NCBI GenBank assembly: GCA_040903985.1
Contig: JBBDUI010000002.1
Coordinates: 262,038-326,037, forward strand
Direction of reading: 5' to 3'
Origin: Candidatus Saccharimonadales bacterium
GTDB lineage: Bacteria > Patescibacteriota > Saccharimonadia > QS-5-54-17
Length of the DNA stretch: 64,000 bases
Each line of letters begins with the position of its first letter. Positions within the stretch are counted from its first letter, which is position 1. The notes under the pieces were generated by a model. It ran no database searches, was not told where the DNA came from, and saw only the letters and a program-made list of their open reading frames with translations. Below, piece by piece: positions 5,693 through 41,469 of this stretch. Position numbers and translations under genes: made by a program.

Positions 5693-7351
5693 ATGAATAA
5701 GGCGGATGAGGCGGTACGAAATAAGGAAGAGCAAGCGGCCAAAAGCCGGGCCGACTTGCTCCGTGTCAGCTACACCGATTCCCGCCAATTAGACGAGTCG
5801 AGCTTCTACCCCGACCTATTGAGCCTAGATGAAATCGATCGTTATAAAGTTGTGCCGGTTAGTGTGGACGCCCAGCAGCTCCAGGTCGGCTTTAGCCTGC
5901 AGACACCGCAAACCAGCTTGGAGGAGCTGCCAAAACTCTTTCCCGAGCACCGCGTCTTCTTTACCTATCTGTCCCAGTCCGGTTTCGACGCCTTGCGCCA
6001 ACGTCACTACGAGCATGCCCACCGTGACGATCCGAAACCGCCCAGTCCGCATGAACTAGCCGACCAGTTAGCCGACCAAATCCTCGAGACTCACCAACAG
6101 TTGAAAGATAGCACCGAGATCGATCTCTTCGGGGATACACTCGATAGCACCCAGCAGTCGGAACTGTTTAACTTCATCGCCCAGCAAGCCTACCTTCTCG
6201 ACTCCTCCGATGTGCATATCGAGCCAGAACCGAGCGGCGCCCGCATCCGCTTTCGGATCGACGGTCGGCTACACGTAGTCGGTCGACTCACAGAAGAGCG
6301 CTATAAAGTACTACTAAACGAGATCCAGATGCAGGCGCACATCCGCTGGAACGCCGACTACCCGCAGACCGGTAGCACCAAAGCTACCCTGATCGGTAAA
6401 GACAAACAGAACGTCGAGGTTAACATGCGGGTAGAGACGGTGCCGACGCTGCACGGAAGTGACGTAGTGGTACGGATCTTCAATCTTCAAGAAGAGTACC
6501 TCAGCCTCGATAACTTGGGATTAAGCGAACGCCAGCGGGAAGTGGTCGATACTATCGTCTCTCGCCCGCACGGCTTGGTGCTAACTGTCGGCCCGACCGG
6601 CTCCGGCAAAAGCTCGACTCTCTACTCTATCCTGCACCAGCTCAACTCAACCGAGGTTAAGATCATCACCCTGGAAGATCCGGTCGAGTATCAAATATCT
6701 GGCATTACCCAGATTCCGGTCGTCACTGATGACAAGGAGCTGGATACCGATGATGCCTTCATGACCAACCTACGTGCCGTCATGCGAGAAGACCCCGATA
6801 TCATCATGATCGGTGAGATTCGTGACAAAGAAACAGCCCGTACCGCCCTCCAAGCCTCTCTGACCGGCCATCTCGTCCTCTCTACCTTCCACGCTACCAA
6901 CGGAGCCGCCGCTCTTAGCCGCCTGTTGGACCTTATCGACTATAACCCTCTCCTAGCCTCTGCTATCCGCCTCATCATGCCTCAGCGGCTCCTACGCCGT
7001 CTCTGCGAACACTGTAAGGTTGCCTACACACCCGATCCTAGTGTGATAGCGACGATTACGAAGGCCATGCAGGGCCTGCCCGACCTGCCAGCCGAGATTA
7101 TGCTCTACAAGCCAGTCGGCTGCGATCAGTGCCACAACATCGGCTATCAGGGCCGACTCAGTATCCTAGAACAGTTCGAAATGAGTCCGGCTATTAACGA
7201 AGAGATCTCCAGTAACCGCGACCTCTCGGTCGAGCGCCTGCAGGAGCTGGCCATCAGCGAAGGGATGATAACTATGCTGCAGGACGGGATTACTAAAGCG
7301 CTGGGCGGGGAGACCTCAATTGAGGAAGTACTGCGCGTCGTCGACCTATAG
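5693..7351 (+). CDS. GspE/PilB-family secretion ATPase (type II secretion, type IV pilus or competence family)
   Basis: 552 aa. Walker A is GPTGSGKSST. The Asp/His boxes and the C-terminal CxxC...CxxC zinc motif (CEHC...CDQC) are present. It is a second copy, separate from the pilus cluster. Confidence 0.85.
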   Translation: MNKADEAVRNKEEQAAKSRADLLRVSYTDSRQLDESSFYPDLLSLDEIDRYKVVPVSVDAQQLQVGFSLQTPQTSLEELPKLFPEHRVFFTYLSQSGFDALRQRHYEHAHRDDPKPPSPHELADQLADQILETHQQLKDSTEIDLFGDTLDSTQQSELFNFIAQQAYLLDSSDVHIEPEPSGARIRFRIDGRLHVVGRLTEERYKVLLNEIQMQAHIRWNADYPQTGSTKATLIGKDKQNVEVNMRVETVPTLHGSDVVVRIFNLQEEYLSLDNLGLSERQREVVDTIVSRPHGLVLTVGPTGSGKSSTLYSILHQLNSTEVKIITLEDPVEYQISGITQIPVVTDDKELDTDDAFMTNLRAVMREDPDIIMIGEIRDKETARTALQASLTGHLVLSTFHATNGAAALSRLLDLIDYNPLLASAIRLIMPQRLLRRLCEHCKVAYTPDPSVIATITKAMQGLPDLPAEIMLYKPVGCDQCHNIGYQGRLSILEQFEMSPAINEEISSNRDLSVERLQELAISEGMITMLQDGITKALGGETSIEEVLRVVDL

Positions 7352-8614
7352 GAGCGTGGTGCGATAGTCCCGCACTAGCTGGGCGAAGACGGCGTTAGTC
7401 CAGCCAAAGCCGACTTGGTTAGGATAGACGCCATCTTTAGGCGGGACGGCGATATCTACTACGTTATATTTCTCGAAAAACTCACCCGAATTGATAAAGC
7501 CCTGCAGATTGTTGTGCAGCCAACGGTGAGCGATTCTAGCGGCCAATTCCTCATAGCCATATCTGGCTAGTCCTCGGATAGTTAACAGATGTAATGGCGC
7601 CCAACCGTTAGGATGAGACCACTGCGCCGGCTGGTGTTCGGCCACGTGAGGATATTCTAAGGTTGTAGCTAATCCACCGTACTCTTCGAACTTCTCGATG
7701 TGCGCCGCTAAGTGCGCCGCTTGCTCGGCACTAGCCATGCCAGACCAGAGGGCATAATAAGCCGCTAGCGACCAAACGTTCGAGTGACGACCGGTCTGGT
7801 AGTTATGATCGAAGTAAAAGCCAGCCTTAGGATTCCAGAGATACTTATCGACCGTCTTGCGCCGCTCCTGAGCCAGTTCCTGCCACTGCTCGGCCTCTTG
7901 CGGTTTGCCCAGGATTAAGGCCGCCCGGGCAAAATCACTCTCGCACTTAAACAACAGCGCATTGAGGTCGATCGGGGTGTAGTCCAGCGCTCGCCCGTGA
8001 AAGCGAGTGGTGTAGTCCCAGCCACTCTCACACTCAGCCAGATCATTGAGCACATTTATCTCGTAATTTCGGCTTAGGCCATGGAAAACATCACGCCAGT
8101 GCGGCTGTTCTCGGCCGCGCCAGACGTTACGATACTCCAGCTTGGCCAGCTCGATGCGCGGTGCCAGCCACTCCTTACTACCGTCGTGATCGTAGAGGTC
8201 GAGTAGAAGCGAGCTTAGCAGAGGTGGCTGCGAACGTGAGGTGAGATATAGCCGATTGCCGGTCGGCACCATGCCGAAGCGCTTTAGGAGGTGTAGTAGA
8301 TTGTCGGCCTGTTCGTAGGCCTGATGCTCCCGACTAGTACCGAGCAGGCTGAGGGCGATAAAGTAGGTATCCCAGTAGTACATCTCCTTATGGATAAAGC
8401 CATTTCTCGGCTTACTACCCGGGGTGAAATAAGGATGTGGAACGCCGATTAGTGTCTCAGTATCGGTCGGACAGGCTGTCTCTAACTGCCCCCACTTCGC
8501 CTCGATATAGCCCATAGCCCGCTCGACGCTAGCTTGATTCAGGCGGGGCGGCAGACGCAACAACAGGTCATCACCAGTTCTAGTTTTAATCTTAGTAGTA
8601 AGCTCTCGGGCCAC
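7346..8614 (-). CDS. treA: Trehalase (glycoside hydrolase family 37)
   Basis: 422 aa. FIHKEMYYWDTYF matches trehalase signature 1 (...Y-x-W-D-x-Y). QWSHPNGWAPLH matches signature 2 (QWDxPxGWxP). Confidence 0.8.
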   Translation of the reverse strand: MARELTTKIKTRTGDDLLLRLPPRLNQASVERAMGYIEAKWGQLETACPTDTETLIGVPHPYFTPGSKPRNGFIHKEMYYWDTYFIALSLLGTSREHQAYEQADNLLHLLKRFGMVPTGNRLYLTSRSQPPLLSSLLLDLYDHDGSKEWLAPRIELAKLEYRNVWRGREQPHWRDVFHGLSRNYEINVLNDLAECESGWDYTTRFHGRALDYTPIDLNALLFKCESDFARAALILGKPQEAEQWQELAQERRKTVDKYLWNPKAGFYFDHNYQTGRHSNVWSLAAYYALWSGMASAEQAAHLAAHIEKFEEYGGLATTLEYPHVAEHQPAQWSHPNGWAPLHLLTIRGLARYGYEELAARIAHRWLHNNLQGFINSGEFFEKYNVVDIAVPPKDGVYPNQVGFGWTNAVFAQLVRDYRTTLL

Positions 8615-8746
8615 CCTGCCTCACTTTTCTCTAGTTCTCTTGTCCACTACTATAGCGCTTGTGGTTATGAGGGTCAAAGCAAGGACGCTTAACTATTTCC
8701 TATGTTTCAGCTACTATAGCGAGAACTAACCTGTGAGGTTTTACCT

Positions 8747-8953
8747 ATGGAGCGCAAAAACCAGACATCTCTACCTCATGTATACTTAATCGGGACAGCA
8801 GCAGCTCTGCTGGTATCAGCGACTCTGGCACCAAATGAAACTACACCGGTACGGAAACCTACCCCAGAAACTGTAGCTGCTGGTCAAGTTGCAGCTTATT
8901 TACCGGAAGATGCGAGTGAGTTACCTAGACTGAAGATGAATCGGGTTAGGTAA
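8747..8953 (+). CDS. Hypothetical small protein (hydrophobic N-terminus) in the low-GC island
   Basis: 68-aa ORF. No recognisable family. Confidence 0.25.
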   Translation: MERKNQTSLPHVYLIGTAAALLVSATLAPNETTPVRKPTPETVAAGQVAAYLPEDASELPRLKMNRVR

Positions 8954-9071
8954 GCTAATGAATATATGACGAGAACTCACTGCATTCTATTTAGCCGCAA
9001 TCTACATTGTGCTATTATTAATTCTCTTTTAGATTTATAATTAAAGTTAACAATTCAAGCTGGGAGCAGCA

Positions 9072-9302
9072 ATGATATTTTCATATGATAAGGAATACAA
9101 ATCTAGAATTCTAGATTCTTTTAGTCTTGCAGCACAAGAAGGTCAGGTCGTAGACAAGAGCACCGGCAGGCCAGTGCCAGACAACCTCGGCGGAAAGCTT
9201 ACTGTAAAGAGATTTGGCGGGATAAGAAAAGGATCGCTTGAATTTATTAATAAAGACGCCTCTTCACTTATACGGCTTAGACAAAAACTAAAGGAAAAAT
9301 AA
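9072..9302 (+). CDS. Hypothetical protein (island)
   Basis: 76-aa ORF that ends 2 nt before the next ORF (9305), so the two are probably one operon. The region is AT-rich. Confidence 0.3.
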   Translation: MIFSYDKEYKSRILDSFSLAAQEGQVVDKSTGRPVPDNLGGKLTVKRFGGIRKGSLEFINKDASSLIRLRQKLKEK

Positions 9303-9304
9303 TC

Positions 9305-10117
9305 TTGTTCGAGTGGTTAAGTAACCTACTACCTGAGAATATTAACATAAACATCAATATCGTTAAGCATGTCAAAATAAATTCAGATAATACTAATCTG
9401 CCCCCTGTATCAATCGAGGACGACAAGTTAGTGATAAGCGATTCGACTCCGGAAGGTAGAGATCTAGCGGAGAGAATTATAAAAGAGCTTCCTTTGCATA
9501 TAGAGCACAACGATATTGTCATTGAAGAAGCAAACCTAGAAAGCTACAGAGAAATTGATGCAGAGTTAAGCGAAGCAGACTTTGAGAATGAACTAGACAA
9601 GTTTAGGCCAATGATTCCTAAGGGCGATGTACCTATGCTGGAGGTGGCAATTCTCGTAAAGATCAGGTTTGATTCTGGCAAGAACGTAGGTCCAATTAAA
9701 GGACAAGCTATACACAGGTATGGCCCTAGAGCCGGAATGATATGTAACTTGTACAGCTCCGGATATTTTCATAACTTAATTAAGCCTCTCTATGAATCTA
9801 TCAAGAGTGGCGAAATAGGTTTCGATGAATACCTGGAGATATATAAAACAATAGTGACAGAATCACCTTTAGCAATGTTCGTAGGACTTGGTACTCCAGC
9901 AGACAAAATGAAGGAACAACTGCTTGATAAAATTGAGCTTAACAAAAAGAGTGGGATAGGTTATTTACATATTCATGGAATTGGAGTTAGTAATACTCGT
10001 TTTATAAAACGACTTCTGACAGATGAAGACATAAAGAATCATTTCGCTGAAGATCCAGATTTAATCCTCACTGGAAGAGCACTCAAGGCAACTATATACT
10101 TAACAGAGGTAGAATGA
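9305..10117 (+). CDS. Hypothetical protein (island cargo)
   Basis: 270-aa ORF in the low-GC region. No confident family assignment. A weak HIHGIG (Smr-like?) motif is noted only. Confidence 0.45.
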   Translation: MFEWLSNLLPENINININIVKHVKINSDNTNLPPVSIEDDKLVISDSTPEGRDLAERIIKELPLHIEHNDIVIEEANLESYREIDAELSEADFENELDKFRPMIPKGDVPMLEVAILVKIRFDSGKNVGPIKGQAIHRYGPRAGMICNLYSSGYFHNLIKPLYESIKSGEIGFDEYLEIYKTIVTESPLAMFVGLGTPADKMKEQLLDKIELNKKSGIGYLHIHGIGVSNTRFIKRLLTDEDIKNHFAEDPDLILTGRALKATIYLTEVE

Positions 10118-10428
10118 ATCCCTGCATCTACCTCATCGAAGCTGTGGGGAATACCCAAATAGTATTTTCGTGGTAGAGAAAGTCCGAAAAAGTTGGCACA
10201 AAGCCCTGAACGAGTTAAAGCACTGAAGGGGTGTGCTGGGAGGAGACTACCAGAAACATAAGTTACACGCTCGAGCTTTTTCTTCAGACACATATCCCTA
10301 GCCTAAGTAGCATCCGCTCTTCCTGCTTTCACTTAATACAACTACTCCCGTGTAGTTGTGGATAGTAGTGATCTTTTAGTTCGTTAACCCCGTACATGAC
10401 GAACCACTTCCTTAGTTATCTACGTTAC

Positions 10429-10629
10429 CTACCACCGGTCTTTAGTCCATGTATTATAAATAGCCTTAATACTTACGAAAAGAAGCCCAAGAGCCAACAA
10501 AATACCGAATAAACTACCTGTTAGTGCTCCAGCATTATCTTCTGGACGAATTGACCCAAGAAACTCACCTAAAAGAGATAGGGAGAATAGACTTAAGAGG
10601 CCCCATAAAGCTATCTTTATAAATCTCAC
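10429..10629 (-). CDS. Hypothetical small membrane protein (two TM segments)
   Basis: 66 aa, strongly hydrophobic. Confidence 0.3.
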   Translation of the reverse strand: MRFIKIALWGLLSLFSLSLLGEFLGSIRPEDNAGALTGSLFGILLALGLLFVSIKAIYNTWTKDRW

Positions 10630-10830
10630 TGTGCCCTCCGTTGATTATATAACTTACTATTTATAAGCAAACACTTTGCTCTTAGCTCAAAAGTAAAATT
10701 GTTTACCATCAGTAATGTTTTAAGGGTACCATATTATGGGAATCGTTTATCTTTCTGCTCGCTCATGGTTCGCCTGCGGCTCACTCAAAGTATCCTAAAG
10801 CTGCCGCTGTCAGCTTTAGACCTCGCGGGC

Positions 10831-10900
10831 GCGATTCCCCTCTCGAAAACTAAACCAATGAAAAAGCCCGACTATGGTCGGGCACTTTCATTGGTGGAGC
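10831..10900. repeat. Direct repeat R3. It is a roughly 85%-identical copy of the tmRNA 3' terminus (gctccacca), the terminator hairpin and about 37 nt of downstream flank.
   Basis: Hand-aligned to 12601..12672 with about 60 of 70 identical positions. It contains the same AATGAAAAAGCCCGAC...GTCGGGCACTTTCATT hairpin. Confidence 0.7.
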
Positions 10901-11118
10901 ACCTCGAAAAAAGTTCACCCCTCATTATAGATGAGGTGCATCGGTGGCGGGATTTACTCTGGAACGACTATAAATACAAGCAAAAACGCTCAACAGAGAT
11001 AGATAACCCCTGAGGGTATACCACCTTATTCATTTTATAAAGATTGTACTATTTCAGTACGAGTCCTATGATGAGTGTTAGATGCATCGTGTATCTAACT
11101 TAATTATATCATTTTGGG

Positions 11119-12321
11119 TTAGCTTGCTATAAATCTCTTAATCCTAGAGACAACGTAATCCCTAATTAGTTGTTCTGACTGGCTAATTAGGTCCTTGTAC
11201 TCAGCCTTTTCGGTTGATGTTGCCTTACTGTAGCCATGAATTTCAATTTTGCCGTGAATGACTTCGTGTCTAGCATTAAACAGCTTCTCTATGTGCTTTA
11301 TGCAATTTTCTCTATCGGACTCGGTTTTTGAAATAGTCTCAGCTATTACAGGTGCCTTTTCGCTAATCGTCGGTACGATATTACTATTTGTTATACTGTG
11401 TTTCCTAGTTGGGAATAGTGAATCAACTACCGATACCAGAAAAACTAGTTGTAGGCTCCAATCTTCATTATTCAAGAACTCTAGGTACCAATAGAGAGCA
11501 TTACATAATTGAATCCGTGCATTTTCTTTATTTTTTGCAGATTGTTTTTTTGAAATATCCTTAAACAATGAATTTACGGCATTAATTCTATCCTTATCGT
11601 TCTTGAAAGAAAGCGTCGTAGCTCTAGAGGCTTTTAGCGGATTTTTGAAGTTTGAATTATATTTGTCATCTAACTTAAATACTCTCGGAGTGGGGGAATG
11701 TCTCCTAATACTATTTGTTGCGAGTGTGCCGAATACGACATGTAGCGAATAATAAAGTCCTACTAATCTATCTGGACTGTAATTTGATTCTAGAAATGCG
11801 TATTCTCCAGTCCTAACAAGACCTTTATCTTCAATGTAGAGGTACTTCTCGCCAACTTTAGGTATGTTATCGCCAAACATCTGCTCTCTCAAAGCTTTGG
11901 CAAGTCCCTGACCCTTAACTTCATTTTTACTTTTGAATTGGTTAAATCTTTTCTGGTCAACCTCAATTATCTTAATGCTATCAAGATCTTGCAGGCCACC
12001 ACAATAATCATCAGGTAATTGGTAATAAAATTTATAAATATAAGGAATTCCTGAAGCCAGCTTATGTATATCAGTTATGACTTTATCTTTTTCGGCAGCA
12101 GTCATGGCTCTAGATTCACGGTTAAAATCACTGACTTTGAAAGCACTTGTGATAAGCATGTTCCAGAAAAACGGCCAATCAATTGCCGAATCATAAAGCT
12201 TCAAATCCACTATCTTATATAGCGGGTCAAAATTAATTGTGTCCACATCTATAAAGCCATCATTTAGCTTAGCGTTGGATAAACTATTCTTTAGTAATAC
12301 TTCTGGATTCTGTCTGGCCAT
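11119..12321 (-). CDS. Hypothetical protein, island cargo. It may be an Abi-like protein with a C-terminal HEPN-like R-x4-H motif (NARHEVIHG).
   Basis: 400-aa ORF in AT-rich DNA bracketed by tmRNA-end repeats. The functional call rests only on the motif and the context. Confidence 0.5.
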   Translation of the reverse strand: MARQNPEVLLKNSLSNAKLNDGFIDVDTINFDPLYKIVDLKLYDSAIDWPFFWNMLITSAFKVSDFNRESRAMTAAEKDKVITDIHKLASGIPYIYKFYYQLPDDYCGGLQDLDSIKIIEVDQKRFNQFKSKNEVKGQGLAKALREQMFGDNIPKVGEKYLYIEDKGLVRTGEYAFLESNYSPDRLVGLYYSLHVVFGTLATNSIRRHSPTPRVFKLDDKYNSNFKNPLKASRATTLSFKNDKDRINAVNSLFKDISKKQSAKNKENARIQLCNALYWYLEFLNNEDWSLQLVFLVSVVDSLFPTRKHSITNSNIVPTISEKAPVIAETISKTESDRENCIKHIEKLFNARHEVIHGKIEIHGYSKATSTEKAEYKDLISQSEQLIRDYVVSRIKRFIAS

Positions 12322-12492
12322 ACTTACAAAATACTATACTGATACTTATTAATATATAACTGTGTCGTACAAATATTATTAACGGCGAATTTTATATAGA
12401 TAATTCTGCAAAAGTTCACACCCCCAAATTGAGCACAATTTACACCTTAGGAAAAAACAAAAAAGACCCCGAAGGATCAAATTTTGACAAAA

Positions 12493-12511
12493 TGGTGGAG
12501 CTGCGGGGAAT
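12493..12511. repeat. Direct repeat R2. It is a 19-nt copy of the tmRNA 3' end (ATTCCCCGCAGCTCCACCA on the minus strand) and looks like an att core.
   Basis: Identical to the 3'-terminal 19 nt of the tmRNA gene, located 170 bp downstream of it in the same orientation. Confidence 0.7.
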
Positions 12512-12629
12512 CGTATCATATTATGCTCGCTCGAAATGCGTTTCTCGCTCGGCCAAGCAAGGAATTCTTAAGCTGCCACCGGCAGCTTAAGCCCTCTCGG
12601 GTGCAATTCCCCACCACAAAACTAAACCA

Positions 12630-12663
12630 ATGAAAAAGCCCGACTATCGTCGGGCACTTTCAT
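12630..12663 (-). terminator. Rho-independent terminator immediately after the tmRNA CCA end
   Basis: On the minus strand it reads AUGAAAGUGCCCGAC-GAUA-GUCGGGCUUUUUCAUU, a GC stem followed by a U5 run. Confidence 0.75.
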
Positions 12664-13076
12664 TGGTGGAGCTGCGGGGAATTGCACCCCGGTCCGCAAG
12701 TTAACTTCCTATCCCGCTACGAGCGTATTCGGTTTGAAAAGTTTCAGATATTTCCCGATCAAACCGACAAAAAAGAACTATCTATAGTCACAGTAAAGCT
12801 TCAGGCGGTTCGCCTCTGACGTACGAACTGCCCTACACCGGATAAATGTCACCAGATTTCCGTTATCCAGTAATCACGGAATTGATGGCTGCGGCGGTTA
12901 GGCTACAGCTGTCGCAAGGTTTCGAGGAGTCATAGCCTCAGAAACTGAAGCTAGAAAACTGTTCACCTTACTAGTAAATGTGTTTACATTTATTTGGGTT
13001 GGTCCAACTAACGTGTAGACCGAACCGGCTCGCTGAATAGGTTGTCAAAATACTCACGTCGAAGCTAATCAGCCCC
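12664..13076 (-). ncRNA. ssrA: tmRNA (SsrA), standard one-piece form, about 413 nt
   Basis: The 5' end GGGGCUGAUUAGCUUCGACG... matches the E. coli 5' end (GGGGCUGAUUCUGGAUUCGACGGG). The 3' end ...CGGGGUGCAAUUCCCCGCAGCUCCACCA gives a T-arm and an acceptor strand with the G3·U70 alanine identity pair. An internal tag frame ends ...GCG ACA GCU GUA GCC UAA. Confidence 0.85.
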
Positions 13077-19453: not shown

Positions 19454-19752
19454 CCCCGCACCTGAAAATGCTAACCAAAGCCGAGCCTCTTCTTCAGCTC
19501 TACAAGTCCTCGACCATAACGTTTGAGCTTACGCTCTCGTTCTTGAGCCAAGGCTTTGGTTGTAAAAGCCTCATAGTAGACAAGCTCCCAGGGTACACCA
19601 CTCTTTGTGGACGTATTCATACCTTGGTTATGTTGATGAAATCGCCGTTTCAAATCTGCCGTAGATCCGATATAGAACGTACCTGTCTTTTTACTGCGCA
19701 AGAGGTAGACATAATACATAGCGATTTCATCATAGCATTTTCAGGTGCGGGG
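19454..19752. mobile_element. TIR-bounded GIY-YIG element (299 bp). It has 20-bp perfect TIRs CCCCGCACCTGAAAATGCTA / TAGCATTTTCAGGTGCGGGG and sits at the P3 position of rnpB.
   Basis: The perfect 20-bp inverted repeats enclose one 82-aa GIY-YIG ORF. The ORF stop codon lies inside the TIR. Homologous elements are at 63276..63577 and (miniature) 19238..19367. Confidence 0.75.
19471..19719 (-). CDS. GIY-YIG nuclease-family protein (YhbQ/COG2827-like, 82 aa) encoded inside the TIR element
   Basis: MYYVYLLRSKKTGTFYIGSTADLKRRFHQHNQG... has the GIY...YIG motifs and a conserved R and H/N, as in E. coli YhbQ. It is on the same strand as rnpB. Confidence 0.75.
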   Translation of the reverse strand: MYYVYLLRSKKTGTFYIGSTADLKRRFHQHNQGMNTSTKSGVPWELVYYEAFTTKALAQERERKLKRYGRGLVELKKRLGFG

Positions 19753-19794
19753 CAGCCATCCAGCGATCTTGCAAGGGAAAATTATAGGCTAGAG

Positions 19795-20490
19795 CTAGCC
19801 GTTTTGCAACTTAGCTTCTTCGTCTAGAATGATGTTCACCTGCTCATCAGCTAAGGTGTTATGTTCGCGGTATACATGCCTGAAAGTCACATTCCCGATC
19901 TCCTCGGCCAACACCTTGATCGAATTATATACCGGCCATAATTCCTTATTTTTCACCTTGAATATGCCATTTAACTGGTTAGCTACTAGTAAACTATCCA
20001 TACAGAAGTCGATAGCAGTGGGCTTAAACTTCCGAGCAGCCTCCAGGGCGTGTTTGACTGCTTGGTATTCGGCCTGATTGTTAGTAGTTATACCGAGATA
20101 CTGGCCGCCCTGCTCTAGGAGCTTGTCCTCATTTTCAGTTAAGATGACGAAGCCGCTAGCCGACGGACCGGGGTTTCCGCGAGAACCACCATCGGAATAA
20201 ATTCTAAGTTTCGTAGTATTTTCTACACTGTTTTCAGTAGTAACTGAATTTTTATTTAAAGCGGGCTCAATATTTTGTCGGGACTGTAAAGCCGTTAGAG
20301 CATCACGCCAAACATCCTTACTCTCACGGCTTTTTGATATAAGCTCTTTCGATCCATCCGGATGCAGGCCATAGATGTGGTGGCCTTTTTTGATGATGGC
20401 TATCCCCTGCTGCAAGGCCGCTAGTGCGACCGTTTCCCGTTTGGTATGTGTTGGTTTTGCGGCTGACATCTGTCTCATTATATCAGACAC
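19795..20490 (-). CDS. rnhA: Ribonuclease HI with an N-terminal extension
   Basis: IYSDGGSRGNPGPSASGFVI...NNQAEYQAV...CMDSLLVANQ...HVYREHNTLAD matches the RNase H DEDD catalytic-residue pattern. The stop is about 19 nt from the RNase P RNA 5' end. Confidence 0.8.
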   Translation of the reverse strand: MSDIMRQMSAAKPTHTKRETVALAALQQGIAIIKKGHHIYGLHPDGSKELISKSRESKDVWRDALTALQSRQNIEPALNKNSVTTENSVENTTKLRIYSDGGSRGNPGPSASGFVILTENEDKLLEQGGQYLGITTNNQAEYQAVKHALEAARKFKPTAIDFCMDSLLVANQLNGIFKVKNKELWPVYNSIKVLAEEIGNVTFRHVYREHNTLADEQVNIILDEEAKLQNG

Positions 20491-20632
20491 ACAGTGGCTT
20501 TAGCCTAGATAGGCACCAGCTTCACGAATCATCGATGATTTTAAGCTGACACAAAGTTACTGTAACGAAGTAGATAAACCTCGTAGCTAAGTCGGACTAT
20601 ATGCAAACGTAGGGATCTAATCGACTGAGATA

Positions 20633-20706
20633 TGGTCGGGGCGCCGGGAATTGAACCCGGGTTACTGCACCCCCAGCGCAGCGTAATACCATTATACGAC
20701 GCCCCG
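20633..20706 (-). tRNA. tRNA-Pro (anticodon GGG), CCA encoded
   Basis: Acceptor CGGGGCG/CGCCCCG, anticodon stem CUGCG/UGCAG with loop CUGGGGG, T-arm CCGGG-UUCAAUU-CCCGG. Confidence 0.75.
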
Positions 20707-20787
20707 TTCACAGTAATTCATTATAGATCATTCCAAGAGGAAACCTAAGATTATAACTAGATTCTACTTAACCTAGTAGCAGTAATT

Positions 20788-20817
20788 AAAAATACCGCTC
20801 CAAAGAGCGGTATTTTT
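20788..20817. terminator. Bidirectional terminator hairpin (AAAATACCGCTC-CAAA-GAGCGGTATTTT)
   Basis: Perfect stem flanked by A-runs and T-runs, downstream of the minus-strand M50 protease gene. Confidence 0.6.
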
Positions 20818-21006
20818 AGATCCCCGTATCGTCACACGAAGACTGTTTCTCCTACTTAAAGCAGGTGGGTATCCGCAAGAATAAGTCTGCGAACGAATCG
20901 CGGGACTTACCTGATGTAAGATTCCCAGAAGAAACAAATATTCAGGAAAACAATGTCAACGTGCGGGCTGATACGGAGACATACTTATTATAGCACAAGC
21001 AGAAAA

Positions 21007-27968: not shown

Positions 27969-29864
27969 CTACAGCTCGAGCAGAAAATCGGCCACCGCTT
28001 CCAGCTTAACCTTCGTCTCGCCAGCTTGGGTGCGGACGCTGACCTCGCCGGCCATCTCGTCTTTTGGCCCGACGATCAAAATCACCGGTACTTTCGCGGT
28101 TTCGGCCTCCCGAATCTTCTTACCTAGTGACTCGTTGCGATCATCGACGGTAAAGCGCAGTTCATTATATTTAACCGGTTCATTTAGTACTACCTCAGCT
28201 AATTCCGTTGTAACTTTATCTATATATGAGCTAACTGCATCGTTAATACTCAAGATGCGGATCTGCTCTGGAGCGAGCCAGAACGGGAAGCGACCGGCAG
28301 TGTGTTCGATATAGACGGAGAGGAAACGCTCAAACGAGCCGAGCAGGGCGGCATGGATCATGACCGGAGTCTGCCGCTCACCGGCCTCGTCAATATACTC
28401 CAAGCCGAAGCGTCCGGGTTGCACGAAATCTAACTGCACTGTAGCTACTTGCCATTCTCGTGCTAGCGCATCCACTGCGATGAAATCGATCTTCGGTCCG
28501 TAGAAAGCGGCCTCTCCGGCTACGACGCTATAGTCCAGCTTCTCGGCCCGGGCGATAGTCTCCAAGGTCTCCTGCGCCTGCGCCCACAGCTCTGCGTCAC
28601 CCAGCCACTTATCGCTCTCATCCTTAAAAGAAAGACTAAATCTTAACTGCATATCTACCTGAGCGTACAACTCCTGCGCGGCCTCGACCAACTCCTTTAT
28701 ACTAGCCTCAATCTGATCTGGTCGGGCAAACACGTGTGAATCGTCCTGCGTAATCGAACGCACCCGACTCAGACCGTGCAGCTCGCCCGACTTCTCGTCC
28801 CGATAGACCGTAGTATTTTCCATGTACTTCACCGGTAGATCACGATAGCTGCGCGGCTTAGAGGCGTAGAGTTGTGTATGATGTGGGCAGTTCATCGACT
28901 TAAGCACTAGGGTATCGGAGCTCTCCTGAGAGTTGATGATTAATAGCTCGTCTTTAAACTTATCCCAATGCCCAGAAGTCTGATACAGCTCGTGCTTAGC
29001 TAGATGCGGTATCCATACCGCCTCAAACCCACGCTTAGCACGCAGCTGCTGCGTGTAGCGCGCCAGCAGGTCCCGCAGCACGGTACCCTTAGGAGTGAAC
29101 AGCGGTAAGCCAGAGCCGACCAGATCAGAGAAGGTGAACAGCTCCAGATCAGCCCCTAACTTACGGTGATCCCGCGCCTTGGCCTCCTCTCGCTGCTGCT
29201 GATACGCGGCCAACTCAGCGGAACTGGAGAAGGCCAGACCGTAAATCCGAGTAAGCATCGCCCGCGACTCGTCTCCACGCCAGTAGGCCCCTGCTACGGT
29301 ATCGAGCGTGAAGGCGCAGGGATCAAGCGCCTGCGCTAGATCAGCGACATGACCACCGCGACAAAGCTCTACCGCGTGCTCAGCCCCTACAGCCTCTCCG
29401 CTCGCTTTAGTGCTAAGGATATCCTCTACCGTAGGTAGAGGATCGGCTGGACCGGAGTAGTACAGTGTAAGCGGTTGCCCCTGCTCGCTCAGTTCGGCAA
29501 TCAGCTCAAGCTTATACGGGTTATGGGCAAAAACCTGCGCTGCTGCCTCCGCTGTGACTGGAATCTCATGAAAACCGTGCCAACTCGGTAGGATCTCCCG
29601 CATCCGCTGCTCTATCTGTAGTAAGTCATCTTGAGAGATAGCCCCGTCGTTGAGATCAAAATCGTAATAAAAACCGTTACTAACGGCCGGCCCAATAGTT
29701 GGCTTTGCCTCAGGATAGAGGTCAACTACGGCGGCGGCCAACAAATGCGCCAAGCTATGACGCAAGGCTCTCAGGTCATCATTGGTCTGCTTCACACCGT
29801 GCTTCATCTGCTCCAGTATAACTGAGTCAGCCCAGATAGGTAAATCGGGGCTGACTGACACCAT
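27969..29864 (-). CDS. thrS: Threonine--tRNA ligase
   Basis: 631 aa. Class II motifs are present (FRDE-like ...TVYRDEKSGELHGLSRVRSITQDDSHVF). The N-terminal editing domain and the anticodon-binding C-terminus are recognisable. Confidence 0.9.
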   Translation of the reverse strand: MVSVSPDLPIWADSVILEQMKHGVKQTNDDLRALRHSLAHLLAAAVVDLYPEAKPTIGPAVSNGFYYDFDLNDGAISQDDLLQIEQRMREILPSWHGFHEIPVTAEAAAQVFAHNPYKLELIAELSEQGQPLTLYYSGPADPLPTVEDILSTKASGEAVGAEHAVELCRGGHVADLAQALDPCAFTLDTVAGAYWRGDESRAMLTRIYGLAFSSSAELAAYQQQREEAKARDHRKLGADLELFTFSDLVGSGLPLFTPKGTVLRDLLARYTQQLRAKRGFEAVWIPHLAKHELYQTSGHWDKFKDELLIINSQESSDTLVLKSMNCPHHTQLYASKPRSYRDLPVKYMENTTVYRDEKSGELHGLSRVRSITQDDSHVFARPDQIEASIKELVEAAQELYAQVDMQLRFSLSFKDESDKWLGDAELWAQAQETLETIARAEKLDYSVVAGEAAFYGPKIDFIAVDALAREWQVATVQLDFVQPGRFGLEYIDEAGERQTPVMIHAALLGSFERFLSVYIEHTAGRFPFWLAPEQIRILSINDAVSSYIDKVTTELAEVVLNEPVKYNELRFTVDDRNESLGKKIREAETAKVPVILIVGPKDEMAGEVSVRTQAGETKVKLEAVADFLLEL

Positions 29865-30072
29865 TTACTTCTACCGCTTCGATAAACATCGACAGTGGCC
29901 GCACCCATAGTGTCCCCTCGTCATACTCTGCCTGATACACTACCAGCTCCTCCAGAGTCTCACTATGACGAGCTATACCAATCAGCTGATAGTACTTGTC
30001 TTTATAGTGTCGATAGCGACCCAGTCGCAAGCTCTCGGCTGCCGGTGACAGTGACGGTAGATCGCTACTCAT
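29827..30072 (-). CDS. DUF1653-family protein
   Basis: 81 aa. YQLIGIARHSETLEELVVYQAEYDEGTLWVRPLSMF matches the DUF1653 core. Confidence 0.55.
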   Translation of the reverse strand: MSSDLPSLSPAAESLRLGRYRHYKDKYYQLIGIARHSETLEELVVYQAEYDEGTLWVRPLSMFIEAVEVNGVSQPRFTYLG

Positions 30073-30245
30073 ATCCCACTCCTCTTCTTACTACCTATGG
30101 TAATGCTTCTATTCTACACTTGATAACACGGACGAGGTAATTTTAAACTATGAAACTCACCCCATATATAACCCTTGCATAAGCCATAAAAAATAGCTTG
30201 CAGTAGATAGCTAGCAGCGATACTATAAGGGTACAAAACAAAAAG

Positions 30246-30300
30246 TTGGGGGCTACAGGAGCTGCGTAAATGCGCACTGTTGTAGCCCCTTTTTTGTTAT
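30246..30300 (+). terminator. Terminator-like hairpin (GGGGCTACA...TGTAGCCCC followed by TTTTTTGTT)
   Basis: 9-bp GC-rich stem with a 22-nt loop and a T-run, in the intergenic region before tRNA-Val. Confidence 0.4.
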
Positions 30301-30566
30301 CATTCTCTTCAAGAATAAGCCGGAACAGATTACAGCTGAGCTGGGAAGCGCCAAACACGTACTAAACCAAATATATGTCAGAGCTGGACAGGCTGAGAGC
30401 AACTCAAGCAGAGGGAGCCACCCCTATCTACAACGACTTTATTCCCTAAGATATCCATCACTCAGTGTAAAAAACGCAAACCACCAACCTCTTAGCAGGG
30501 GCCGGCTATACCGAGAATTAACGCTCGGTTCTTATCTGAATTATAACGCGTACAAAAAGATCGATT

Positions 30567-30643
30567 TGGTGGATCTGAGAGGACTCGAACCTCTGACCCC
30601 CTCAACGTCAATGAGGTGCTCTAGCCAACTGAGCTACAGATCC
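30567..30643 (-). tRNA. tRNA-Val (anticodon GAC), CCA encoded
   Basis: GGAUCUG acceptor, GCUC-AGUUGGCUA-GAGC D-arm, anticodon loop UUGACGU, T-loop UUCGAGU. Confidence 0.85.
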
Positions 30644-30758
30644 ATACCTATCGAATATACTACACCTCTAATCCAGTTTCCACGTTAATTGAGAATTACC
30701 CACCACCCGGCGCCAAAACCGAACATAAGGATATAACCCACTGTTCTTGACAAAAGGC

Positions 30759-30787
30759 TTGACTTATTGTGTTAGATCCACTACAAT
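30759..30787 (+). promoter_or_regulatory. Sigma70-like promoter (TTGACT, 17-nt spacer, TACAAT)
   Basis: Good -35 and -10 hexamers with canonical spacing, about 35 nt upstream of a small ORF that has a GAGGT RBS. Confidence 0.5.
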
Positions 30788-30821
30788 CAGTCCTGTTTGC
30801 TTAATATGTGAGGTAAACGTT

Positions 30822-30980
30822 ATGAGTAAACAGCGCAAGCTAAGTAGCTATCCGTTGTTTTATGAGCAGGTTCCTGCAGAGGTACCTGTGGCCGAGCAGC
30901 CCCTCAAACGGCGCCCGGGCCGAAAACCTAAGTTCCCCCGCTTGCCGGAGGACAACGTACTCGAGAATCTCGAGCAATAA
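30822..30980 (+). CDS. Hypothetical small basic protein (52 aa, MSKQRKLSSYPLF...RRPGRKPKFPRL)
   Basis: ATG preceded by a GAGGT RBS 7 nt upstream and by a promoter. The ORF-track entry 30747.. is an artefactual upstream extension. Confidence 0.4.
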   Translation: MSKQRKLSSYPLFYEQVPAEVPVAEQPLKRRPGRKPKFPRLPEDNVLENLEQ

Positions 30981-31270
30981 GCCGCTCTATACCCTACATA
31001 TCCCCATGATCCAGCGCGATTATGGGGATATTTCTATTTTGAATTACTTATAATTACCTAATGTAACAGGGGCAGAACGAGAAAATATAGACTTATCCAC
31101 AGCTTTCCACTTGTGTTTCTGACAGCGGCATGACAATATATAGTCATGGTACGAACAAAGAGACGTACCACAAAAACGAGTGATGTGAATTTGTTGTTTT
31201 AACAAATCTAAAAGAACAGTCCCGCCTCTGGCGGGACTGTTCCATAACAGATTAATAAGGAGAGATTAAG

Positions 31271-33969: not shown

Positions 33970-34181
33970 CTGGTGGCTATTATAGCGGTTTTATGGAATA
34001 AACGGCAAAGGTTTCCTGCGACCCGCTTTCTGCTACGCAAAAAATCCGCTTCAGACCGAGGACAAGCACTCATCAGAAATTAAAAAACCACCCTAACGGG
34101 CGGTCATTAATTTCTCCTGGCGGGCCGTTACTTTGCAGGTGTGGAACTACTTTGTGCTAAACAATTCAGTTCAGACAAAAC

Positions 34182-35348
34182 TTAAGTAGCCTTATTAAAA
34201 GCTATGTTATCTGGGTTGACACCATTTGCCGTAGCAGTACGACGTGCTAAGTCACGGAACATTGCACGAGCTTCTTCACCTTGTTTGCCGGCGGCACGGG
34301 TCTTTTCGGCGGCGTAACTAAATATCTTTTCCCTATGGGACGTTAATGATGTACCTGGTATTTGTACCGGTTCGTCACCAACTGCAATTCCTTCTGCTAC
34401 ATTTTGTGGAATACGAGAAGTCTCACGGTCCTTAAAAGCGTCTGGGCTATCTTTAGCTAAGGCGATAACCATGCCAAGTACATCATCAGAGTGCTTGCCG
34501 TCCACATAGACGACAATTCCATCACCACGTAATCCACTTGTTTCATGTCCCATAGCCTTGCCTTTATGGGCACTGGCTGCTTCTGGTGCTCTTTGGAGCA
34601 TTTTAAGTTGCATAGAGATGCCCGCTTCATTAGCGGTCTGCAAAAGCTTCTCAAACAGTTCTGGCGTAGCTTCCATATCGGGGTTTAAGTAAATTCGCTT
34701 GTCTAACACCTCATCTTTGCCAGCCATTTTTTCGTGTACTCGACTATCTGTATATGCCATAACAAACACGCCGCCAAACTGGCGTTGTATCTTAAAGTTA
34801 GGTCGCACGTCGAGCGCACCTTTACTCTGAGCGTCTAGTACATCCGTACCGTCAACCTTAAAGCCACGATACTCTACAGCTCCCACAGGGAAATTACGGG
34901 TATCACCGTTACACCAATCTACGATTTCATTAGCAGCCTGTGGAGCTTCTTCGCCAAGATGGGCCAGAAATTCTTCTTTGGCTTGCCAAACCTGTCCACG
35001 TCGTTCTTGAGCTTGTTCAGGACTGCTACTGCGGGCTACGGCAACTTTAAGGTTACGAGCAAGCATTTCTGTTGTACGAAGATACAGTCCTGCAATGCGT
35101 TCTGGGCTCTCAATAACTTCTTTATCTTTTGCGATACTCTCAACATTATCAAGATAGCCTTTAATTCCAACCTTTTCGTTACCTAACCGTAAATCACCGC
35201 CAATAGCTCCGTCAATGAAGGTGTCAGAAAGGTGTTTTTTGGCTTCTTGAGCTTGCTCAAAAGTCTCGTACCTAACTTTTAAGTCAGTAGCCGTGATGTT
35301 TCCACCTAGCTGGGAAGGGTCAGCAGCAATATACTCTTGAGCCGTCAT
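34182..35348 (-). CDS. Hypothetical protein (388 aa), no family recognised
   Basis: Long ORF with consistent codon usage. No diagnostic motif was identified by eye. Confidence 0.45.
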   Translation of the reverse strand: MTAQEYIAADPSQLGGNITATDLKVRYETFEQAQEAKKHLSDTFIDGAIGGDLRLGNEKVGIKGYLDNVESIAKDKEVIESPERIAGLYLRTTEMLARNLKVAVARSSSPEQAQERRGQVWQAKEEFLAHLGEEAPQAANEIVDWCNGDTRNFPVGAVEYRGFKVDGTDVLDAQSKGALDVRPNFKIQRQFGGVFVMAYTDSRVHEKMAGKDEVLDKRIYLNPDMEATPELFEKLLQTANEAGISMQLKMLQRAPEAASAHKGKAMGHETSGLRGDGIVVYVDGKHSDDVLGMVIALAKDSPDAFKDRETSRIPQNVAEGIAVGDEPVQIPGTSLTSHREKIFSYAAEKTRAAGKQGEEARAMFRDLARRTATANGVNPDNIAFNKAT

Positions 35349-35451
35349 ATTGTGACGTTGAGCTGTTTCTGGTGAATATGGGTAAGTTCTGACATGTTTT
35401 TATTTTAGCGTAATACTAAAATAGTACCACAAAAATGGTACTAAGTCAATC

Positions 35452-35529
35452 TGGCGGGCCCGACCGGATTCGAACCGGCGATCTCCTCCGTGACAGGGAG
35501 GCGTGATAGGCCTACTTCACTACGAGCCC
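35452..35529 (-). tRNA. tRNA-Asp (anticodon GUC), CCA encoded
   Basis: Acceptor GGGCUCG/CGGGCCC, D-arm GUGA...UCAC, anticodon stem CCUCC/GGAGG with loop CUGUCAC, T-loop UUCGAAU. Confidence 0.8.
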
Positions 35530-35664
35530 GCGTCAATCACCAGTTAATTGTAGATGAGAGTGGGTCAGCATACAATTAACAAGCTCATATATAGTAACAA
35601 CAATGCTATATCGAGGGCAATTGCCCTCGATATAGCATTAAATATATACTGATACGGATCACTT

Positions 35665-35740
35665 GCCACCTTAGCTCAGTTGGTAGAGCGACACTTTCGT
35701 AAAGTGTAGGTCGCCGGTTCGATTCCGGCAGGTGGCTCCA
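35665..35740 (+). tRNA. tRNA-Thr (anticodon CGU), CCA encoded
   Basis: GCCACCU/AGGUGGC acceptor, GCUC-AGUUGGUA-GAGC D-arm, anticodon loop UUCGUAA, T-loop UUCGAUU. Confidence 0.85.
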
Positions 35741-35890
35741 CGTCGGAACTCATGTTTAGTTTCCACCATTGCAACACCAGCTAACGCTCTGCTTGCAATG
35801 GCTCCAACTTAACATGGTTCCTCCTTACAAACTGAAAACACCATAAGATGTTTCCAGTTTGGCTTAAGCTTCGTAGAACTAAGCGAAGTA

Positions 35891-35930
35891 AAATCCCTCC
35901 ATAGCCTTGGCGACGGAGGGATTTTTGTTT
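35891..35930 (+). terminator. Rho-independent terminator (AAATCCCTCC...GGAGGGATTT followed by TTGTTTT)
   Basis: 10-bp stem followed by a T-run, downstream of tRNA-Thr. Confidence 0.5.
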
Positions 35931-36053
35931 TCAAGCAGAAATTCTACTTTTTTACGCGATTGCGTATTTTAGTAAAACCCCCGCAAGACTAAGTATCCAA
36001 GCAATAGCCTCGCTAATTAGCGAGGCTATTTTATTACACTAAGTAACTAGTCT

Positions 36054-40524: not shown

Positions 40525-41469
40525 ATGCCTTTTCCGGCGTACAATATAGGTATGCTTTTATCCGATGCCATCATAGATTTTCTAGAACACCTCGAGATTG
40601 AGCAAAATCGATCACAGAGAACCATAGCTAACTATGATCATTACCTGCAACGGTTTCTCGAACTGACCGATGATATAGAAGTGACTAAGATCGACAGTGA
40701 GCTAATTCGCAAGTATCGCCTGCGGCTCAACCGGACGACCGACCGCCACGGTCGAGAGCTGTCCAAGTCGACCCAAAACTACCACCTCATTGCCCTGCGC
40801 TCCTTTCTAAAGTACTTAACTAAGCGTGATATAGATGTGATGTCGGCCGATAAAATTGAACTAGCCCGCGTCTCCCGACCCAAGGTGGCCTTTCTTGATC
40901 CGGAGGAGCTCACCCGCCTCTTCGATCAACCCGATCTCGACACCTTAATCGGACAGCGTGACCGGGCCATCATTGAGTTACTTTATTCCAGCGGATTGCG
41001 CGTCTCCGAACTAGTTAACCTCGATCGAGGCCACATCAACCTCGAGCGGCGGGAGTTTATGGTCCGAGGTAAGGGCCAGAAAGATCGCCCAATCTTCATC
41101 AGCCAGACCGCGGCCGACTGGCTGAGTACCTATCTCAAAGGGCGGATCGACAACTACCGCCCCCTCTTCATTCACTATTCTGGCACCCAGAGTGGACTAG
41201 ACGATGGGAACTACACTCGCCTAACGGCTCGCAGCGTGCAGCGCAATGTAGCTAAATATGCCCGACTAGCCGGCATCACCAAGCGAGTCACTCCTCATGT
41301 ACTGCGCCATAGCTTCGCGACCGACCTCCTGCGTAATGGAGCCGATCTGCGCAGTGTTCAGGCTATGCTAGGTCACAGCGATATCTCCACCACTCAGATA
41401 TATACCCACGTGACCGATCCCCAGCTCAAGTCAGTGCACGAGCGCTTTCACGGCCCGACCGCTAGATAG
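40525..41469 (+). CDS. xerC: Tyrosine site-specific recombinase, XerC/XerD family
   Basis: 314 aa. R...HxxR...Y catalytic residues are present (LRVSELVNL...HVLRHSFATDLL...IYTHV) with an N-terminal SAM-like core-binding domain. It lies in the chromosomal core and is not in the island. Confidence 0.8.
   Translation: MPFPAYNIGMLLSDAIIDFLEHLEIEQNRSQRTIANYDHYLQRFLELTDDIEVTKIDSELIRKYRLRLNRTTDRHGRELSKSTQNYHLIALRSFLKYLTKRDIDVMSADKIELARVSRPKVAFLDPEELTRLFDQPDLDTLIGQRDRAIIELLYSSGLRVSELVNLDRGHINLERREFMVRGKGQKDRPIFISQTAADWLSTYLKGRIDNYRPLFIHYSGTQSGLDDGNYTRLTARSVQRNVAKYARLAGITKRVTPHVLRHSFATDLLRNGADLRSVQAMLGHSDISTTQIYTHVTDPQLKSVHERFHGPTAR

Follow-up and report, generated by a model that had tools for sequence, protein, structure and literature searches.

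A probable array of decayed integrative elements at the 3' end of the tmRNA gene in a Saccharibacteria genome

Analysis of a 64,000-nucleotide stretch of Candidatus Saccharimonadales DNA (the window) indicated that the region from ~8700 to 12663, between the tmRNA gene (ssrA) and a trehalase gene, is in all likelihood an accreted array of decayed integrative elements aimed at the 3' end of ssrA. The first-pass annotation had suggested tandem integration remnants that lost their integrase, and this is supported: copies of the ssrA end stand at the unit borders, and the gene for a large serine recombinase (LSR) has been deleted. At least four units are stacked between the two genes. In the direction of the tmRNA gene, the order is ssrA with copy a, block B, copy a', the LSR remnant with ORF400, copy a'', block B', ACGATTCCC, unit 4 and trehalase. 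Unit 1 would be block B, which supplies a terminator for ssrA and closes with the last 19 nt of that gene in an exact copy. Unit 2 (10892-12511) would be a 1.6-kb deletion derivative of an LSR island, unit 3 a diverged B unit (B') whose terminal ssrA copy has been shortened, and unit 4 ~2 kb of low-GC DNA with small open reading frames (ORFs) and the ORF76-ORF270 cassette, its far boundary presumably eroded. Site-specific integration by an LSR at the ssrA end may have been followed by accretion of further units and by deletion of the recombinase; the order of these integration events is one that we infer. The features are as follows.

12664..13076, minus strand: tmRNA gene (ssrA), found by ARAGORN and by Rfam RF00023 (112.7 bits, full model, positions 1-374)
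12664-12682, minus strand: copy a, the target and repeat sequence, last 19 nt of ssrA
12512..12663, minus strand: block B, a 152-nt unit without genes, supported by repeats, terminator scan, RNA fold and homologous blocks
12493..12511, minus strand: copy a', the exact 19-nt ssrA 3' end
12375..12521, plus strand: LSR gene remnant, last ~49 codons, found by tblastn
11119..12321, minus strand: ORF400, cargo of the LSR-island remnant
10892..10972, minus strand: conserved far end of the LSR island, 79% identical to L031 8965-9046
10892-10900, minus strand: copy a'' (GCTCCACCA)
10738..10891, minus strand: block B', second copy of B, its core 85% identical to B
10429..10629, minus strand: ORF66, a small hydrophobic ORF in low-GC unit 4, called as a gene in Logan contig L013
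9072-9302, plus strand: ORF76, first gene of a two-gene cassette
9305-10117, plus strand: ORF270, second gene of the cassette
8747..8953, plus strand: ORF68, a small ORF containing a hydrophobic stretch, where the low-GC DNA borders on the trehalase side (GC 0.48, GC3 0.33)
7346..8614, minus strand: trehalase gene, conserved chromosomal flank (Pfam PF01204, E = 1e-83; synteny)

The composition of this DNA is foreign to its surroundings. The GC content of 8615-12663 is 39.2%, compared with 50.8 +/- 1.6% in other 4-kb windows (z = -7.4), and its tetranucleotide distance to the remaining window is 0.424, compared with 0.158 +/- 0.018 elsewhere. The GC content at third codon positions (GC3) is 0.30-0.35 in the island ORFs and 0.60-0.67 in the flanking genes, and the conspicuous AT-richness described earlier is borne out. 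The tmRNA gene had been correctly placed on the minus strand with its end at 12664, and the foreign DNA directly follows this regenerated end, up to which the Rfam match is full-length. The hypothetical ORFs listed by the first-pass annotation all exist, and the 68-aa ORF at 8747-8953 is added to them. None of the five island ORFs matched a family in Pfam, PADLOC, PHROGs or NCBIfam, and the cargo proteins had no significant sequence matches in PDB either. The island had no blastn match in the phage and plasmid collections; nor does it look like a prophage or phage satellite, with no significant PHROG match and with relatives of ORF400 and ORF270 absent from IMG/VR. Apart from the LSR remnant, no recombinase was found in 8615-12700 (ORF list, Pfam). 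The earlier statement that the island has no integrase is therefore accurate for an intact one, but overlooks the 49-codon remnant at 12375-12521. The XerC-like gene at 40525, which had already been set aside as distant, has domains typical of XerC/D, and nothing ties it to the island.

To compare the locus across genomes, syntenic relatives were reached via homologues of the GalT-like protein adjoining ssrA and the contigs on which they lie. Scanning genome contigs with the same protein brought up nothing closer than distant relatives at 25-34% identity (Acidobacteria, Planctomycetes and others), which were useless for synteny. The order ArgRS/SmpB, T2SSE, trehalase, ssrA, GalT-like, ComM is kept in four relatives. 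The content of the slot between trehalase and ssrA is as follows.

L040 (GCA_050486185.1): 136 nt only
L043: two ORFs of 120 and 151 aa
L170: ORFs of 389, 145 and 148 aa, the 148-aa one with a rhodanese domain
Window: ORFs of 68, 76, 270, 66 and 400 aa

The cargos of the window and of the relatives' slots show no mutual similarity. The trehalase-ssrA junction (the treA-ssrA junction of the first-pass annotation) is thus empty in L040 and filled with unrelated cargo in L043 and L170, which identifies a hypervariable insertion site. On the trehalase side, the upstream sequence at ~8615-8690 resembles that of L043 when compared by eye, suggesting that the island ends between ~8690 and 8747. These comparisons bear on a competing explanation, in which the region is ancestral AT-rich chromosomal DNA and its repeats arose by chance or by replication slippage. 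This is highly improbable. The slot is empty or differently filled in the four syntenic relatives, so the region is not ancestral; the composition is far from that of the host, with GC3 depressed; an LSR gene remnant is present, in a unit whose cargo and both ends have homologues in an intact ssrA island of L031, and the ORF76-ORF270 pair is found at unrelated loci in other genomes. The ancestral reading draws support from the lack of any same-species genome without the region among those found, and from the host-like GC of B and B'. In a second Saccharimonadales genome (L041 8745-9496, GCA_040876925.1), T2SSE and trehalase are missing between SmpB and ssrA, and their place is taken by ~750 nt of very AT-rich non-coding DNA. 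The terminator hairpin of ssrA in this genome shows homology to the first ~40 nt of block B, and the Logan contig L042 (SRR27977662) has the same locus.

Copies of the ssrA 3' end delimit the units. For the 19-mer TGGTGGAGCTGCGGGGAAT there are exactly two occurrences, 12493-12511 and 12664-12682 (0 of 100 shuffles had two matches), in agreement with the exact repeat reported before. Copy a', when extended to 21 nt (12493-12513), equals the standard CGATTCCCC T-loop form of relatives, and it doubles as the distal repeat of B and the ssrA-side junction of the LSR-island remnant. A second repeat had been described as 70 nt long with about 85% identity. The repeat is real and the identity is confirmed, but its length is not: 10786-10900 aligns with 12558-12672 at 85% over 115 nt, and 10738-10764 with 12506-12532 at 78%, and the two alignments together give a duplicated block of ~155-165 nt. 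Nor is it a simple duplication of the gene terminus, being instead a second copy of a conserved gene-less unit that follows ssrA elsewhere. All three occurrences of the 9-mer TGGTGGAGC on this strand fall at unit boundaries. B' closes with ACGATTCCC, which corresponds to the first 9 of the 21 nt of ssrA-end sequence at the close of B. Unit by unit, the repeats are 19 nt and exact for B, 9 nt for the LSR remnant (GCTCCACCA, also present in L031) and only a 9-nt partial copy for B', while unit 4 (8700-10737) has none. B and the LSR remnant therefore have the layout of cis-mobilisable elements, with att-type repeats on both sides and no genes for recombination or transfer. Scanning viral contigs with the 19-mer yielded nothing but the ends of unrelated tmRNA and tRNA-Ala genes; its conservation is too wide for it to be diagnostic of an element.

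The origin of unit 2 is indicated by L031, a 63-kb Logan contig that carries the closest ORF400 homologue (57% amino-acid identity) and has SmpB and ArgRS as in the window. Its tmRNA gene lies at 111-507, and directly after the tmRNA end stands sequence homologous to window 12513-12369. Then come ~7 kb with a 558-aa LSR, encoded on the opposite strand at the junction, and other genes, next a helix-turn-helix (HTH) gene and the ORF400 homologue, and the island closes with 82 nt homologous to window 10972-10891. The far end reads ...GGGGTGAACTTTTT(N6)GGTGCTCCACCA in both L031 and the window; in the window this end (10892-10972) closes with GGGGTGAAC(N12)GGT and is followed by copy a'', GCTCCACCA. 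The plus-strand translation of 12375-12521, INGEFYIDNSAKVHTPKLSTIYTLGKNKKDPEGSNFDKMVELRGI, aligns with residues 471-519 of the L031 LSR (53% identity over 49 aa, E = 5e-10, tblastn) and with the LSR of a second contig, L153 (37.5% over 56 aa, tblastn), and an in-frame stop codon lies upstream of it. The alignment covers only the C-terminal tail of the LSR. The Resolvase and Recombinase domains, found as PF00239 and PF07508 in the L031 protein and as PF00239 (E = 5e-12) in that of L153, are deleted in the window, and both L031 and L153 keep intact LSR copies at the matching ssrA junction. As both ends and ORF400 are kept while the recombinase is lost, 10892-12511 is best read as a 1.6-kb deletion derivative of an LSR island. 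The deletion probably extended from LSR codon ~470 to the promoter region of ORF400, and unit 2 would consequently no longer be self-mobile. A replacement terminator for ssrA (stem 12465-12478, minus strand) lies inside the codons of the remnant (KKDPEGS). The first-pass annotation had cited the 3' ends of tmRNA genes as classic integration sites for genomic islands; the ssrA 3' end is indeed the target, but the recombinase is of the serine type and not of the tyrosine type that classic islands imply.

A scan of metagenomes for Saccharibacteria-type tmRNA 3' ends returned at least 120 loci, and ~103 distinct ssrA loci were examined. In L153, a 5.57-kb island with a 526-aa LSR at the junction begins exactly after the CCA of ssrA. 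In L124 and L147, both flanks are 100% identical to those of L153 and the island is absent, with an 8-nt alignment overlap, TCCACCAA. These three JGI metagenome contigs form a natural occupied/empty pair from one population, so that the LSR island of the L153 type is mobile and apparently active. Its attP is CCACTTCG-TCCACCAA-GTCATGATT, and its attB consists of the ssrA end and the start of a B block. Short remnants of LSR C-termini also lie beside ssrA or its copies at several other loci, including L170. For intact LSR islands, the crossover would lie within (GC)TCCACCA, at the extreme 3' end of ssrA or in a copy of that end. The ssrA 3' end is thus a busy insertion site in Saccharibacteria for small LSR islands that decay to integrase-less remnants. 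The genomes of Patescibacteria, Saccharibacteria among them, are tiny, and how they gain and lose accessory genes is poorly understood. Comparison of L153 with L124 and L147 provides exact attL, attR and attB sequences for a compact LSR aimed at a conserved gene end, which makes this recombinase a candidate tool for genetic work in organisms difficult to engineer.

The junction has a further property. In the intact relatives, the LSR gene stands at the ssrA-side junction on the opposite strand, and the codons for the LSR C-terminus invariably contain, on the other strand, the new ssrA terminator. Beyond the junction, the LSR reading frame continues into ssrA and stops 41-149 nt inside (L153 2470-4050, ending 41 nt inside; L031 359-2035; window 12375-12590). 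The C-terminal tail of the recombinase must therefore differ between the integrated and the excised state, and this could bias the direction of recombination. The crossing of the LSR frame into ssrA and the gene-less B unit are the parts of the locus most worth a further look.

Recombination in silico at GCTCCACCA removed unit 2 and left a junction identical to the ssrA-B junction, suggesting that the LSR island could have used either copy of the site. The predicted junction of the unit 2 circle is ...TTTTTTCGAGGTGCTCCACCATTTTGTCAAAATTTG..., and the predicted empty site is ...GATACGATTCCCCGCAGCTCCACCAATGAAAGTGCCCGACC.... The same result invites the view that the units are still cis-mobilisable elements and are moved by a recombinase acting in trans, for instance one brought by an incoming LSR island. 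The GCTCCACCA core stands at both unit 2 junctions, the 19-nt repeat around B is perfect, related LSR islands are active in nature, as the L153 pair demonstrates, and the same route has been proposed for integrase-less ssrA islands of Dehalococcoides (PMC3146451). We nevertheless consider present-day mobility quite unlikely. No LSR gene was seen in the 5.5-15.5 kb part of the window, the part examined for one, and the recombinase at 40525 is XerC-like; the terminal repeat of B' is shortened, and unit 4 lacks a distal repeat.

Block B combines several unusual features. Its terminator hairpin (12626-12667) has a stem that also pairs with the CCA end. The tmRNA T-arm recurs in it as an inverted copy (12599-12612), and B further contains a GNRA mini-hairpin, a second hairpin (hairpin 2, 12567-12591) and two CGAGCGAG direct repeats; its CGAG(C/G)A repeats are conserved. 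The RNA fold of 12700-12493 has an energy of -105.6 kcal/mol (z = -9.3). Within 12599-12689, the T-arm, acceptor end, CCA and first ~70 nt of B form one long imperfect hairpin with a 14-bp outer stem and a 19-bp inner stem. The inverted T-arm copy matches the T-loop of the tmRNA beside it (GCAATT/AATTGC in the window, GCGATT/AATCGC in L170 and L129), and the copy in B' has the GCGATT form, unlike the window tmRNA and B (GCAATT). Blocks of 135-190 nt that directly follow ssrA and close with an exact 15-21-nt copy of its end were found in L056/L124/L147, L066, L128 and L170 (the L170 unit at 9324-9496), and B-like blocks without such a copy in L129, L141 and L119. L040 and L170 have a terminator in common, which stands directly after ssrA in L040 and after B and the copy in L170, indicating precise presence or absence of the B unit. 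Deletion of B from the window would join the ssrA end directly to TTTTGTCAAAA. A first metagenome scan with a 23-mer from the B hairpin found nothing, and no viral contig matched a conserved motif taken from the 3' half of B.

According to the preferred interpretation, B would be a miniature, gene-less, att-bearing element mobilised by a recombinase in trans. Its conservation allows another explanation, in which B and B' are a functional appendage of ssrA (a 3' trailer, processing signal, small RNA or spare attachment site) that was duplicated locally, with foreign DNA entering between the copies later. Comparison of the window and L170 revealed that B and its repeat are 77.5% identical (90.7% in the 3' half), whereas the host genes are 65.6% (tmRNA), 62.9% (GalT-like) and 62.3% (trehalase) identical. 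The long hairpin formed by the ssrA end and the start of B, the T-arm copy that tracks the T-loop variant of its own tmRNA and the host-like GC of B fit such a function equally. So does hairpin 2, the sequence of which changes while its pairing is kept: across five sequences, three pairs are changed on both sides (10 of 500 shuffles equal this), and in L170 the stem is largely different and still complementary. However, the B unit occurs in only ~8-10% of the ~103 ssrA loci, and the inverted T-arm is rarer. The presence and absence of the unit in L170 and L040, with 19-21-nt direct repeats, is a signature of site-specific insertion or deletion, and the CGAG(C/G)A direct repeats are more reminiscent of binding sites for a protein than of RNA helices. 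Moreover, B has no Rfam match, and the terminator scan placed a strong intrinsic terminator at its very start, so that most ssrA transcripts should stop before the rest of B. A functional appendage with local duplication is thus an unlikely explanation.

A broader proposal covers both views: B with its ssrA-end copy might be an undescribed unit of 150-190 bp, without genes and specific to the ssrA 3' end in Saccharibacteria, either a miniature element or a selected appendage of ssrA. We regard this as a tentative idea that is possible but on balance improbable. As a miniature element, B would possess only the arms to which a recombinase binds (the CGAGCGAG repeats, hairpin 2 and the inverted T-arm) and would spread horizontally by means of a borrowed recombinase. 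As an appendage, the long hairpin at the tmRNA end and the spare attachment site would serve as a landing pad that spares the essential gene; it is at the distal ssrA-end copy that the LSR remnant is found in both the window and L170. If true, either version would explain why B is conserved above the level of the tmRNA gene.

Other identities for B or its parts were tested and rejected. A tRNA-like or permuted-tmRNA gene gave only 20 bits in Rfam (E = 0.44), attributable to the real tmRNA end, and nothing in ARAGORN. A coding remnant of a recombinase C-terminus is contradicted by translation by eye, in which the frame is not kept in L056 and L170. The inverted T-arm is not a general feature of Saccharibacteria ssrA, being found only in B-type lineages; nor is it a symmetric attB for an LSR, its centre of symmetry lying ~24 nt from the crossover. 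Finally, B is not similar to either end of an LSR island, which speaks against a fusion of two such ends.

Several points weigh against reading the whole region as an array of decayed elements. The GalT-like protein is only 56-68% identical in the syntenic relatives (56-61% for L040, L043 and L170), and no same-species genome lacking the island was found, so that the empty state of the window's own lineage is deduced from distant relatives. Even the apparently empty L040 spacer has a terminator resembling the ssrA-proximal end of the LSR island, and no untouched site has therefore been seen. Unit 4 is without a distal ssrA-end repeat, and its status as island DNA is only tentatively suggested by its composition, by the variability of the slot and by the occurrence of its cassette elsewhere. 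B and B' have a host-like GC content (0.52; B 0.515, B' 0.528), and the conservation of B and its repeat between the window and L170, higher than that of the tmRNA gene, could mean function rather than mobility. Tandem duplication, a later insertion of B, or unequal exchange between strains carrying the island at different copies might each have brought two B units to the flanks of the LSR remnant. The defence role of ORF400, discussed below, is assigned by association, in the absence of a PADLOC match.

As the genome was assembled from a metagenome, the array might also be an artefact in which two strains were joined at the repeated block. The Logan contigs of SRR27977662 do break inside B, where L013 ends at 12548 and L011 starts at 12533 with a 16-nt overlap. 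Both contigs, however, are 100% identical to the window, and they end in the part of B where it differs from B'. In addition, L013 alone runs from trehalase through unit 4, B', ORF400 and copy a' and on into B for 37 nt, and the NCBI assembly bridges the gap between the Logan contigs. A chimeric join at block B is therefore unlikely, and an artefactual origin of the array scarcely credible. The contig break at 12533-12548 may reflect low coverage or strain heterogeneity.

Analysis of the cargo pointed to candidate defence or toxin genes. ORF400 has nine homologues among 5.8 billion proteins, and a profile search returned 70 cluster representatives among 1.84 billion proteins. In 50 diverse members of the family, G167, W278, R351 and H356 are invariant; R351 and H356 belong to an RNxxxHG motif, in which N352 and G357 are at least 90% conserved. 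The C-terminal part of ORF400 is a HEPN domain with the helical-bundle fold of that superfamily, and the N-terminal ~240 aa have no recognised fold. PF18735 (HEPN_RiboL-PSP) is matched by 15 of the 50 members (best E = 1.3e-5), while the window ORF400 itself has no Pfam match, and PADLOC gave no meaningful match among the 50 relatives. Homologues of ORF400 have SIR2 and DUF87/HerA-like genes as neighbours in L036, and PLD-SNF2 helicase, Eco57I-type methylase and AAA_13/DUF2130 genes in L035; both neighbourhoods resemble defence islands. ORF400 is most likely a HEPN RNase with a predicted role in defence or as a toxin.

The ORF76-ORF270 pair of unit 4 has 13 homologues, one of which bears the name Saccharibacteria in its source record. 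An ORF of 75-77 aa precedes the ORF270 homologue in each of the three contexts examined, all at other loci. The cassette at L045 3615-4662 has a tyrosine integrase two genes away, and that at L047 9767-10810 is flanked by dnaK and a NUDIX gene. ORF270 itself has an Alba/Smr-like fold over its last ~76 residues, among which H224-G225-I226 are invariant. A weak match of ORF270 to prok_STING (E = 0.076) received no support from the fold search, and this identity was rejected. Few defence systems are known from the phylum, and ORF400, as a member of a rare HEPN family, and ORF76-ORF270, seen mainly in Saccharibacteria, are candidates for such genes.

The closest precedent for the array is provided by the ssrA islands of Dehalococcoides, which are arranged in tandem downstream of ssrA, have low GC and are bounded by 20-bp repeats of its end; a gene for a ~540-aa serine recombinase stands on the reverse strand beside the ssrA-side junction, and many units lack an integration module and have been proposed to be cis-mobilisable or fixed (PMC3146451). 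The Saccharibacteria locus shares the tandem arrangement at a single-copy ssrA, the low GC, the break in synteny, the 3'-end repeats, the reverse-strand serine recombinase at the ssrA side (526-558 aa here) and the units without a module. It differs in phylum, in the much smaller size of the islands (1.6-8.5 kb), in that no DsiA/ParB/Mom-type companion genes were seen, in the length of the LSR-island repeat (7-9 nt versus 20 bp) and in the entry of the LSR frame into ssrA. The likeness is one of layout. We found no open-access paper describing ssrA islands of the LSR type in Saccharibacteria. The array of the window is an ordinary decayed island array and mainly a confirmation of a known arrangement.

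An island that enters a tRNA or tmRNA gene rebuilds the end of the gene, and the piece that it displaces marks the far boundary (PMC4383910). The window array resembles the tyrosine-integrase islands of the Islander/TIGER type in its target at the ssrA 3' end, the restored gene end, the supplied terminator, the displaced gene fragment at the far boundary and the tandem arrangement. It differs in that its recombinase remnant is of the serine type and no tyrosine integrase is associated with it; the 19-21-nt repeats around B would fit a tyrosine-integrase element, for which no parent was found.

Cis-mobilisable elements (CIMEs), as known from accretion and mobilisation, are several kb long and carry genes. 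The units here are similar to them in having att-type flanks, in lacking genes for recombination or transfer, and in standing in tandem with integrase-bearing elements or being derived from them. Block B differs, with 152 nt and no genes, and its mobilisation in trans is a proposal for which the precise presence or absence of a B unit between the L170 and L040 lineages gives indirect evidence. Compared with HEPN toxins and abortive-infection proteins (RiboL-PSP HEPN, HEPN/MNT, AbiV, Csm6), ORF400 is set apart by its lack of a Pfam or PADLOC match and by the absence of an evident partner antitoxin beside it; the HTH gene that precedes the L031 homologue is absent in the window.

Two further observations concern the tmRNA gene and the rest of the window. 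The tmRNA gene is long (413 nt), and the tag assigned by ARAGORN has ~29 residues and starts with V, compared with 26-27 residues starting with AN in relatives; the resume codon of the window tmRNA may be mis-assigned. Milder GC dips (0.44-0.48 versus 0.51) occur at 19500-21000, 29500-31000 and 34000-36000, where they coincide with tRNA-Pro (20633), tRNA-Val (30567) and tRNA-Asp/Thr (35452-35740), and these dips could be further small insertions or simply intergenic DNA.

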